This document shows, in pieces, positions 2,083-58,020 of a DNA stretch of 64,000 nt. Positions within the stretch are counted from its first letter, which is position 1, and each line of letters begins with the position of its first letter. This DNA comes from Eledone cirrhosa (taxonomy: Eukaryota): contig OZ024754.1 in the NCBI GenBank assembly GCA_964016885.1, positions 186,001-250,000 of the forward strand. Direction: 5' to 3'. The notes beneath the pieces are model-generated. The model was not told the DNA's origin, did not search any database, and saw nothing but the letters and a program-made list of their open reading frames with translations. A program made the position numbers and the translations under genes.

Positions 2083-2367
<285 letters not shown>

Positions 2368-4997
2368 ATATATATATATATATATATACACCTTGTTCTA
2401 AATTTCCCAATATCATTCATTCAATTACACGATCTTCACAAATCGTAAATTAAATAAAATGGAAAGACAGGAGAAAGGTCGTTCCCGTCAATACACAAGA
2501 AATCATTAGATATTCTCTTTGAAAGAAAGCTGAAGACGCATTTTTACAACTAGCAGCGTATTGCAAACGCATGAAACCCTGTGAGGCCGCATTAGTTCTC
2601 AGAAAAATAATAAATCTTTAATCTAAATAATTTATAAATAAGTAACTTATATTAAATTACTGTTTTTAGTCTTAAGGCTTAAATTGTTTATTTTTAAATA
2701 TAACTTTTTGTCATATAGTTTTATAAAGACTGGTGGAATGTGGCTGAAATCTTCCCCCGAGGGCAACTACTGTTGTTTACAACCCACCGTAGAATGTGAC
2801 AGAGATAAATTACCGATAAATTAACGAAGAAATTAGGCAACTTTGAACATTTATATAATGACTATAAAGTAAAAGGATAAGCTGGGTTAATTACCTCTGG
2901 AGGCGGGGAAAAAATGTATAGAGACGCTTGCGTGAATCGAACCACGCAACTGCTGTACATATGGCGGACTGCTGTGATTACCGTATCTATGCATTAATAT
3001 CAACTCCTCTTATTAATTGTTTCTTTCAAGGGATTATGTTAAAAAAATAAACCTCATTTGGTCCAAACTATTTACAAAACATCAGCAATCTTTCAACAGT
3101 GAAATTAAACCACAAATTATCAAAAATGTTTCTGAATTCCTCTCTAATTAAATTATTTTCTCACATTCAAATTTTCGACTTCAAATTCTTGTCGTTTAAA
3201 ATTTGTTATCTGTTGTGAGAACAGTTTGTACCTTCATCTGTCATTAAAGCGCATTACTGCTATATTATCCAATGTCATATATTTATTAATATACTAGGGT
3301 AAGATCGAGGGAGATTTGGTTACAATTTCTTGAAAGTTGAGCATTTTACATAGAAACTCTGTAGTTGTTTCATAGAGGTGTGATTTCTAAACAGTGGAGG
3401 CGTGGACTCCTTATTCTCTGCAGTGAAATAATCACTATTTAATAACAATGCAGTACTAAAGCCAAGGAGAGAATATTGACATAATTTTCCATCTGCTAGA
3501 TATAGCAGCCAATTCTATCTCAAATCACACCTTAGGAAAGAATGATAATATATTCCTAAGTACACCATGTTTGAATAACAGAAGGGACAATCATGGTTTG
3601 AATAACAGAAGGGTCAATAAAGGACGACCTAGGAATAAATAACAATACCAATGAAGATATCCTGTCAATGAGAAGGCCCCTATGTAGCCAGTCACTCAGC
3701 TAGAAATAGCAACTGAATTCCCCTCAAAATATATCGTATCATTTCCTATTAAATACGACACATCAGATACTGTAGGTTTAGTTATGTCGGAATGAAAGAT
3801 TGGATAACTACGATTATAATATGTTGAGATATGTCTGCTGGATTAGAACCGACTTGGGGCCAAACAAAAGCAAAAATGAAGAAATTTTTTCCAGAATCCT
3901 CCTCGTTTTATATGAACATATAACTCTGCCAAGAACTGTTATATACCAACAAATAATAGTAATTTATTCTGCCAAATTAGGCAAAATGTTTTTCCAAATC
4001 GAAAGAAAAGTTTTGTTTTGGTCTGGTTAGTCTTTAGACTTGAACTGTATTCAAAATATGTGGCAGGTCATTAGGTCAAAATATGTGACAGATCATTAGG
4101 TCAAAAGATAACTTCAAGAAATGTTAAAAGCAATGAAACTTGATTTGTGACTGTTGGTGAAGAACGGTGGAAATTATAGAGGTTATTATTGAGAATGCTT
4201 TCTTCTTGTATGATTAAAAGAATAGAAAATTTGCAAAATAAATGTCACGAGTCAGTTCCAGGTCTTGGTATAATTTAGCAGTTTTAAATTCGATTGTTTT
4301 AGAAATCGAAAAGCAATATCTTCCACTGAAAATGAACAATGTCGTGGAAGGAAACGAGAATTTTATAAAAGTTTTGTTAATTTTAAAGGTGTTATCTTTG
4401 TATTGAGGTGAACAGAATTATCTAATTAGTTCTTTCGAACTTTAATTCTTTACTTCATTTTAACCGTTAATTAAGGCCCTGCTGGAGTACTGTAGTGAGT
4501 CAATACTAGTGAGTACAATGTAGAAAGTGACTAGGCTGAAACTTCAAAGTCACTGTCACTTTTCTACTATATATATGTATATATGTATATATGTATGTGT
4601 ATATATATATATATATATATACAAATTTTAGTACAGCATTAACGAAGCTTTAGGCTGCGGCTAAGCTAACGAATGCAGGATCGGAATGTAGCTTTAGCAC
4701 TCGATGGAGAATAATACCCCAGAGTTATAACAATACGTTTAGACAGCTTTGCAAATCAAATATAGCGGCCTGCAGTCCAGCCGCATTGTCATAGCAACGA
4801 AAAAGACTGAACTCAGGGAAAGATTTTGACTATGTATGTATGTATATAGATTTTGAGTTTATGTTGGTTGTATACCAACACCTCAGTATGCAGGCTGGAG
4901 CACTCGACGAAGTGCGCAGGTTGGTTTGGTTACTCCGGAGTAGTGTAAAATAAAGTTAAATAAAAAGTCAAATGATTAAAATTTAGCTTCGTTTATT

Positions 4998-5502: not shown

Positions 5503-5554
5503 GTGTGTATATATATATATATATACATATGTATATATATATATATATATATAT

Positions 5555-5748
5555 AACGAAGGAAATGTAAGGAACCAGATGGACCATAACGCACCAAAGT
5601 ACTCAATACTTAGGGTAGTAGAGTGGGTAATAGGAACAAGTATGACCCCGACGGCAGAGCTCAAGCCGTTTCGACGGCTAATTCGGGACGTCCAGAATTA
5701 GCCGTCGAAACGGCTTGAGCTCTTCCGTCGGGGTCATACTTGTTCCTA
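5555..5748 (-). mobile_element. Short fold-back PLE-type element, family P1 (diverged subfamily)
   Basis: Reverse orientation of 2189-2367; arms centred on GGACGTCC; flanked by (TA)n. Confidence 0.75.
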
Positions 5749-5994
5749 TATATATAAGTAGAGGGAAAAGATTTAAAGAAACGTTATATCAATATTGGCC
5801 GTAGTGTTATCCAACGTTCCTTTAATCCTTTGAAAATAGAGTTTAGCGATTTGAGTCCCTGGCTCAGCTGGCCCCAACTGACATTACTTGAAATGGGCCC
5901 CTATCGAGTGTTACGAAACCTACACATCTTGACATAGAAACGCTAGGTAAGGAAGACAATGATGATGATAATGATGATGGTGATGATATTAATA

Positions 5995-20493: not shown

Positions 20494-20568
<75 letters not shown>

Positions 20569-20573
<5 letters not shown>

Positions 20574-20960
20574 ATATAAGATCAAAAGATGGTTAAAAGA
20601 GTTCCAAGTATTTTATTATGCGCATTTCAAAAACAAATATCATCATGAGATGATATCTGCGTTTTCATCAGATAAAATAGGGATACATGATATGAAGGTT
20701 AAAAAACTATTCACAAGTGTTTTTACTATTCACAAGTGTTTTTTAACCTTCATATCATGTATCCCTATTTTATCTGATGAAAACCTAGATATCATCTCAT
20801 GATGATATTTGTTTTTGAAATGCGCATAATAAAATACTTGGAACTCTTTTAACCATCTTTTGATCTTATATTATATATACTCCAGTCCTACAAACTGTAG
20901 AGTGCTACTTATCCGATATTTGCATTGCTTTATTGTGCTACAATAAAACTCACCTCCTAC
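20569..20960 (+). mobile_element. PLE-type fold-back insertion, family P3, with two inverted hammerheads
   Basis: About 135-bp inverted arms (20570-20706, 20740-20878) and a ~80-bp tail. Hammerhead TTTTAT-CTGATGA-stem II-GAAA-TGCGCA-TA-ATAAAA at 20768-20834 (+), mirrored at 20611-20677 (-). Confidence 0.8.
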
Positions 20961-26714: not shown

Positions 26715-26990
26715 ATCGTCACCACCACCATCACTACTGCCACCGCAAGCACCACCATCACCACCACCACCACCACCACCATCACCAGCACCATCACCTC
26801 CATCAGCACCACCACCAGCACCAGCACCATCACCACCACGACCAGCACCATCACCACCACCACCAGCACCACCTCCATCAGCACCACCACCAGCATCACC
26901 TCCATCACCAGCACCACCACCACCAACACTGCTTCCATCACCATCACCATCATCATCATCAGCATCACCATCATCATCAGTAGCAGCACT
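26715..26990. repeat. (CCA/CAT)n low complexity
   Basis: Read directly. Confidence 0.9.
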
Positions 26991-57369: not shown

Positions 57370-57374
<5 letters not shown>

Positions 57375-57568
57375 AACCAGTAAGACCCCGACAGCTGAGC
57401 TCAAGCCGTTTCGACGGCTAATTCTGGACTAGTCCAGAATTAGCCGTCGAAACGGCTTGAGCTCAGCTGTCGGGGTCTTACTGGTTCCTATTACCCACTC
57501 TACTACCTCAAGTATTGAGTACTTTGGTGCGTTATGGTCCACCTGGTTCCTTACCACATTTCCTTCGT

Positions 57569-57569
<1 letters not shown>
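57370..57569 (+). mobile_element. Fold-back PLE-type element family P1 with a perfect 122-bp palindrome
   Basis: 57370-57491 is self-reverse-complementary, centred on ACTAGT; the tail is as in the 2189 copy. Confidence 0.8.
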
Positions 57570-57601
<32 letters not shown>

Positions 57602-57602
57602 T

Positions 57603-58020
<418 letters not shown>

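Follow-up and report, generated by a model that had tools for sequence, protein, structure and literature searches.

How a short repeat comes to hold one half of a hammerhead ribozyme next to its own mirror image is the question raised by three palindromic repeats in the window, which here means the whole 64,000-nucleotide stretch of Eledone cirrhosa DNA that was analysed. All three are stubs of a Hydra-type Penelope-like element (PLE), and their family has about 20,000 members. Probably such stubs are twin target-primed cDNAs that ran off the 5' end of the element RNA, most of the templates being capped near one base, A(-41), and a minority being cut by the hammerhead, and the ribozyme fold would not have been the primer. 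In this explanation the parent element, the two fixed outer ends, the variable inner ends with their sharp upstream limit, and the concordance of the arms are seen directly in the copies. The roughly 20,000 insertion junctions speak against self-priming and point to a single base inside the ribozyme as the likely capped start, which bears on how PLEs build the inverted arm and on what their hammerheads do. All positions are numbered from the predicted hammerhead cut GUC^GGGG, with +1 as the first base after the cut (window 57472) and -1 as the preceding C.

The three copies in the window

The copy at 57370..57571 (plus strand) is a mini-insertion in (TA)n that consists of an inverted short arm, a long arm and a tail, and its long arm is identical to the parent copy L151 in 142 of 142 positions. 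The short arm (57370..57431, minus strand) runs from parent position +20 back to -42 and the long arm (57430..57571, plus strand) from -42 to +100, and they may be regarded as cDNAs primed at an internal and an outer start site, respectively. At the palindrome centre (57429..57434), position 57431 is A(-41), the putative capped transcription start, which in the parent stands in the context TT[A]GTC. Downstream of it follow the 3' strand of hammerhead stem II (-34..-24; 57438..57448) and then GAAA, stem III with a palindromic loop and the GUC triplet (57449..57471), with the cut predicted between 57471 and 57472 from the sequence, the parent fold and the ends of other copies at the same bond. 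The internal start site (+17..+20, TTCC/TAT; 57488..57491) has a 3-nt match to the (TA)n target and is marked by the short-arm outer ends of 70 of 73 copies as well as by loose contig ends at the same base. The one-sided tail of 80 bp (57492..57571) ends at the outer start site (+97..+100, CGT/TAT). All the features from the palindrome centre to the tail lie on the plus strand.

The other two copies lie at 2188..2369 (plus strand), where the short arm reaches -35 and the long arm begins at -28, and at 5553..5749 (minus strand), where a copy of a different subfamily has arms to about -40 and one mismatch near the centre (-35 and -40 for the long and short arm by alignment). The initial annotation had described all three as inverted pairs with a one-sided tail in (TA)n, had read GAAAC, stem III and GTC-GGGG as hammerhead parts, and had found the 5' half of the core missing; all this is borne out, with tails of about 80 bp, and the partner strand of stem II (-77..-67) and the UUGANAA core (-84..-78) occur only in long copies. 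Its description of the repeats as palindromes applies in full to the 57370 copy, which is a perfect palindrome of 122 bp (57370-57491), but the other two are imperfect, the short arm of the first extending 7 nt further upstream than its long arm. A fold-back exactly at stem II does not describe them either, as the turning points differ between the three (long/short -42/-42, -28/-35 and -35/-40) and vary across 73 copies. The substitutions in the 5555 copy that had been called private are subfamily alleles: the same CATACTTG allele is present in the parent copy L150, and the haplotype class recurs. Likewise, the G-C pair in stem III, taken as a change from G-U in that copy, is the majority state, GCCGTC being commoner than GCTGTC (T in 22 of 59 sampled long arms).

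Two further elements of the window deserve mention. Adjoining the 57370 copy, a short element at 57745-58010 belongs to another family; it has a minimal hammerhead motif of canonical form (CTGAAGA, stem II GTCAC/GTGAC, GAAA) and, just downstream, a (TA)6 run. A relative sits upstream of the match in L038. Positions 20566-20950 belong to a second family of the same build, a palindrome of about 314 bp (93% self-complementary) that lies in (TA)n, has a tail of about 75 bp on one side and carries CTGATGA...GAAA in each arm; related copies flank L018 and L148. Copies, also of different subfamilies, are often neighbours within one (TA)n tract (L021/L022, L145, L256, L333).

The family and its parent

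Family copies were located by pattern matches in the 3.0-Gb genome, in which the window is G000:C14:186001-250000. One 24-mer from the tail matches exactly at 26,783 places, compared to 0 for the reversed control, and the main sample comprises the first 90 of these matches in genome order plus the three window copies, 93 in total; it thereby covers the first 25 Mb of one chromosome and copies with the exact 24-mer. Short inversions account for 73 of the 93 (70 of 90 excluding the window copies), the whole ribozyme is traversed in 8 of the 90, and the remaining 12 are truncations or joins to other sequence. Scaled to the genome, this gives about 20,800 short inversions among exact-match copies, an extrapolation from one 25-Mb stretch with an interval of 68-85%. 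Three arms need a comment on scoring: the short arm of L014 was scored -7 by the junction alignment because of an internal deletion, its true reach being about -46, and the arms of L062 and L100, scored -26, belong to a diverged subfamily. L062, L100 and the region upstream in L027 represent older related subfamilies that have different stem II and stem III sequences and the same structure of palindrome plus tail, and whose parents might supply covariation.

The parent L151 (G000:C1:11224800-11233500) is a unit of 3,118 bp with an intact open reading frame of 719 codons starting at +191, and the long copies share an upstream region that ends a GIY-YIG reading frame. The single protein of 719 amino acids has a reverse transcriptase followed by a C-terminal GIY-YIG domain, with YRDD at 348, VIY at 591 and YIG at 606, RWR at 37 in the place of RWK, DKT at 117, a CxCx5C linker at 572, and CxxC at 670 and CxH at 698 in the C-terminal part of the endonuclease. 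In an inspection by eye for the CCHH motif, a single Cys was seen between VIY and YIG. The target of the parent family is (TA)n. By the motifs RWR, DKT, CxCx5C, CxxC and CxH together with this target, the parent is assigned at the sequence level to the Hydra clade of PLEs. The PLE origin that the initial annotation had assumed is supported. Homologs of the open reading frame number 2,054 among 7,996 scored; a Pfam scan of the parent returned 0 families, and three nucleotide strings and one peptide string specific to the family gave 0 matches in the supplement of PMC8557442. The intact reading frame makes each of the steps proposed below testable.

In several copies (L024, L031, L033, L041, L044, L050), the 3' module of the family is joined around position 1500 to other PLE-like families or subfamilies without a TA spacer, in L024 to another GIY-YIG C-terminus and 3' UTR. 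These joins suggest template jumps between families.

Two fixed outer ends and a common upstream limit

The outer ends of the stubs are constant. The short arm ends at +17..+20 in 70 of the 73 short inversions and the tail at +97..+100, and the TAT at both outer ends matches the target. The inner ends are variable and have a sharp limit: 101 of the 146 arm ends lie at -45..-35, and by alignment 0 of 146 lie upstream of -45, which means that the 5' strand of stem II (-77..-67) was never copied. Among the 73 copies, the short arm goes at least 3 nt further in 27 and the long arm in 21, and the two agree within 2 nt in 25. The joins between the arms (26 with filler, 14 blunt, 23 with 1-2 nt overlap and 10 with 3-6 nt overlap) look like end-joining.

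According to the proposed mechanism, both strands of a nicked (TA)n target would prime cDNA on the element RNA, one at +20 and the other at +100 relative to the cut. The two cDNAs would run off the 5' end of the RNA and then be joined head to head, which would leave a dead-end stub. As RNA beyond the tail is required by the anole Poseidon element PAc according to PMC11167929, initiation would take place at the 5' pLTR-ORF junction of a transcript. In L121/L004 (G000:C1:about 492000), an inverted arm of 900 bp ends on (TA)n at about -46 and not at +20, and a third priming site is possible there.

A probable capped start within the ribozyme

The base that precedes A(-41) is informative on the nature of the limit. 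Among 100 of 3,808 matches listed, it is G in 88 and A in 12; before the control position C(-38), 100 of 1,187 matches listed have 18 G, 50 A and 32 C, and the difference between G and A at the two positions is highly significant (Fisher p 2e-16). In copies that are contiguous like the parent, the same base is T in 58, C in 5 and G in 2 of 65. Inspection of 30 A(-41) loci found 0 parent copies and a G in 23, of which 13 are explained by neither arm and 10 can be read as overlap with the other arm. The 57370 copy itself has no extra G, and the excess comes from other copies. At -46 the same test is weak, with 4 clear G and 1 T among 30 loci. In addition, contig depth in a public run, possibly derived from the source sample, steps about tenfold at the limit by a rough measure. 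Untemplated G at L1 and SVA insertions has been attributed to the cap in the account of PMC3287187. By this likeness, the untemplated G before A(-41) points to a capped RNA start inside loop II of the ribozyme, and most templates would be capped RNAs that start near this base. The sequence TT[A]GTC around A(-41) presumably resembles an initiator. With a start within loop II, the 5' copy of the mRNA would have lost half of the core and could not cut itself.

Twin priming could also be combined with another cause of the limit: the long, AU-rich stem II might block the cDNA through its structure or through a protein, or an RNase might cut the RNA within the loop. The zone coincides with the 3' strand of the predicted upper hairpin, the region is quasi-palindromic, which favours joining there, and the arm ends are spread over 11 nt, less sharp than a single start site would have it. 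Such a block is nonetheless unlikely, because it leaves the G excess at -42 and its absence at -39 unaccounted for, because four of four jumps onto RNA that contains the ribozyme pass the zone, and because a stall would be expected on entry into the stem and not after its 3' strand has been copied. Also the second-pass stops speak against it: in L242, L255 and L256, found among 30 examined of 32 copies with a tail-to-ORF junction, the cDNA ends at -38..-41, continues in the ORF after a jump, and on the second pass halts again at this place.

A 3' splice site at TTTTCATTTAG was considered as well and rejected, as the ends are not at exon starts and the fillers have no common upstream exon. Some copies have extra runs of T/A (4 to 17) at -44..-42 where parents have three T (junction list; L092), which suggests slippage at the template end.

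A mirror arm built afresh with every insertion

The proposal of the initial annotation that each insertion makes its own short arm is supported by the comparison of arms within and between copies. Among 59 copies that cover all six subfamily-diagnostic sites, 51 have the same haplotype in both arms, compared to 13.2 expected from shuffles, and the divergence is 2.1% from arm to arm and 6.8% from copy to copy. As far as the sequences can tell, the mirror arm is thus built anew at each insertion. One clear mosaic was found among the 59, L075 (G000:C1:13299361-13301461), whose arms differ at three adjacent diagnostic bases; two templates or a later conversion would be needed for it.

The mechanism that had been suggested, a fold-back of the first cDNA at the stem II hairpin with self-priming of the second strand, is largely refuted and has very little probability left. 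It agrees with the match of the arms within a copy, with palindrome centres near stem II and with the geometry of 10 of the 73 junctions, but it requires the 5' strand of stem II, which the cDNAs never reached, and its predicted fold-back product has 0 matches genome-wide. Nor should the short arm be the longer one, as it is in 27 of 73 copies; in L073, L102, L120 and L107, the long arm begins only at +14..+37 and the ribozyme part is carried solely by the short arm. In two of the 11 long inverted insertions that were mapped, L151 and L160, it is the longer arm that has the tail-less end, and it includes ORF sequence absent from the tailed arm, which means that it was primed on RNA. A fold-back would also give no reason for the fixed end at +20.

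Comparably improbable is a non-autonomous palindromic element, MITE- or SINE-like, that was amplified as a unit from a few masters. The copy number is very high, some junctions recur and one perfect join makes up about one fifth of the loci in the junction list, as such an element would have it; however, there are dozens of different junctions, the arms track the subfamily within each copy, and the 57370 copy is identical to a parent with an intact ORF. Neither the terminal inverted repeats of a MITE, the tail being on one side only, nor a palindrome fixed in the consensus, both of which the initial annotation had named as evidence against its reading, is found, as the junction varies per copy. 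Target site duplications are masked by (TA)n, and longer duplicated flanks are seen in a few copies (L017, L045).

A later collapse of long inverted insertions, through deletion at the palindrome centre or in the assembly, has the least probability, for although long inverted insertions with kb-size arms exist and palindromes are prone to deletion, a deletion would yield neither a hard limit at -45 nor a G before A(-41) nor both arms at +1 with untemplated filler, and contigs of public runs, possibly from the source sample, show the same varied joins.

The hammerhead of the parent

The core of the parent at -84..-78 reads YUGANAA and is found at 5,612 places in the genome. Among 100 of these cores listed, A8 is present in 100, U3 in 76 and C3, which is a mismatch with A8, in 24, and position 7 can be any of the four bases. 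The minimum free energy fold of the parent is a three-way junction in which stem II is formed by -77..-67 with -34..-24 around a long loop, its stability being no better than that of shuffles (z -0.46). The predicted fold has the features of a type I hammerhead, with GAAA, NUH and a core enclosed by three stems. As the initial annotation had expected, the parent has a hammerhead, but with the core UUGANAA (U3-A8) and not CUGANGA. A genome search for a CTGANGA parent gave 32 matches, and the 30 that were inspected are all junction fillers or other elements. With U3-A8, the pLTR holds a known variant and not a canonical hammerhead; U3-A8 is a natural hammerhead covariation according to PMC3088659 and is reported for PLE hammerheads in PMC4209133. 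An Rfam search of the parent gave no match, and an Rfam search of the window no hammerhead among 150 matches listed of 407. The parent ribozyme sequences have too little variation for covariation, and of eight metagenome relatives, five had visible motifs, which are canonical short hammerheads and of no help in this respect.

Insertions that end at the predicted hammerhead cut

Ultra-short palindromes occur 493 times in the genome. In a hand count of 50 listed ones, both arms stop precisely at +1 in 19, with a filler that is untemplated and mostly A/T; another 5 read CCCCGGGG, a single arm is at +1 in 5, and the remaining 21 are longer or ambiguous. By extrapolation, both arms would end at the cut in about 190-240 loci, compared to an estimated 8 or so if independent stops occurred in at most 2% per arm. 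Ends at the same bond are found in more complex copies as well: all three segments of L253, two junctions of L263 and one of L264 are at +1, and in L285/L286 both arms are at +1 and joined through ORF sequence. Four copies, selected for a GUC end, end at GUC with 1-2 more bases and a run of A (control: 1 match over 10 offsets). Their continuation was not selected for; it is exactly +1 in three, two of these with one extra G, and G followed by A(-41) in the fourth, and 4/4 pass the zone of -35..-45, compared to 8/57 sampled long arms. Counts of A before +1 and before -1 are 627 and 381, a control that is confounded by overlap with the other arm.

These ends are indirect evidence that about 200 insertions were copied from hammerhead-cut RNA in vivo, so that in a minority of cases, about 1%, the template would be an RNA on which the U3-A8 hammerhead had already acted. 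A stall at the junction in place of cleavage could give ends at +1, too, and retains some residual plausibility.

Long copies and the life cycle

Eighteen copies retain 1.5 kb or more of ORF beyond the junction. None of them begins within -35..-45: the sequence continues past -137 in 13, and the others begin at -24 (one) or at +47..+94 (four). Such 5' ends mean that these copies did not arise from capped linear RNA by occasional strand transfer; the ORF-complete copies are also at odds with a simple transfer of the retroviral kind by way of the 41-nt redundancy. A pile-up of 5' ends at -475 was dropped, being most likely a difference of the reference unit (gap in the self-match of L151). Long copies would need a template without a 5' end at this place, the candidates being a circle, read-through RNA and a switch onto the 3' end of cut RNA. 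To judge from their 5' ends, a circle of cut RNA, as has been proposed in PMC4209133, or a read-through RNA would fit better.

It is conceivable, if somewhat short of probable, that the stubs record the PLE life cycle as a whole. A promoter in loop II would give an mRNA whose 5' end is protected and whose 3' end is cut; run-off stubs would be the only product of capped RNA, cut RNA would give rise to the ultra-short palindromes as well as the end-to-end jumps, and the full-length and partial-tandem copies would be made from a circle of cut RNA. If this were true, the ribozyme would be needed for productive transposition in vivo.

Comparison with known systems

The inverted copy with a one-sided tail is the standard PLE footprint in the account of PMC8557442, and like the EN+ PLE insertions described there and in PMC3846280, the copies of the present family have a head-to-head inverted 5'-truncated copy, a tail at one end, a microsatellite target and a junction palindrome. 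However, the tail is 80 bp long and not 30-40, and about three quarters of the copies are 200-bp stubs. Self-priming, which the text of PMC3846280 proposes for the junction palindromes of PLEs, fails for this family. With the Hydra clade as outlined in PMC8557442 it shares the C-terminal GIY-YIG, RWR for RWK, DKT, CxCx5C, CxxC, CxH and the (TA)n target, but the unit here has 3.1 kb and the hammerhead is non-canonical (U3-A8, long stem II). Hydra-1_Obim, given in the supplement of PMC8557442 and by eye a relative, has a canonical core of its own (CUGAAGA).

The hammerheads are close to the PLE minimal hammerheads presented in PMC4209133, including the U3-A8 variant of Cercyon, in being of type I, located in the pLTR and equipped with a palindromic loop III and the U3-A8 covariation. 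They differ in the loop of stem II, which has about 30 nt and holds a putative transcription start, in a longer stem III, and in that only the 3' core half is left in the stubs. Paired hammerhead motifs 100-700 bp apart on opposite strands are noted in the same account. The non-LTR retrozymes (10.64898/2026.07.22.740005) are, by their description, short non-coding PLE derivatives tied to hammerheads like the stubs, but form head-to-tail arrays with whole ribozymes, whereas here single head-to-head stubs with half a core are found. The function of the ribozyme is called unclear in the account of PMC8557442, and according to PMC11167929 the hammerhead is dispensable in vitro.

A biochemical parallel is the anole Poseidon element PAc, the protein of which, as reported in PMC11167929, cuts and extends both strands in vitro from two internal start sites that define the tail. 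In the family described here, two internal start sites likewise bound the tail, but both have a 3-nt match to the target. Within the account of PMC11167929, RNA-seq reads at the hammerhead cut are absent and the inverted arm is not treated; here, genomic copies end at the cut.

In the twin priming of L1, a second nick primes internally and thereby causes an inversion. In the present family, by comparison, each of the two cDNAs starts near the 5' end of the RNA, and their overlap leaves the same 60 nt in duplicate. A G at the junction of full-length cDNA is a likeness to L1 and SVA as described in PMC3287187. In the openly accessible literature searched, no earlier report of a cap-like G, an in-ribozyme start or cut-site ends was found. 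Palindrome and tail are the already known PLE footprint, and what this family adds to it is the cap-like G at one base, the putative start inside the ribozyme and the ends at the predicted hammerhead cut.
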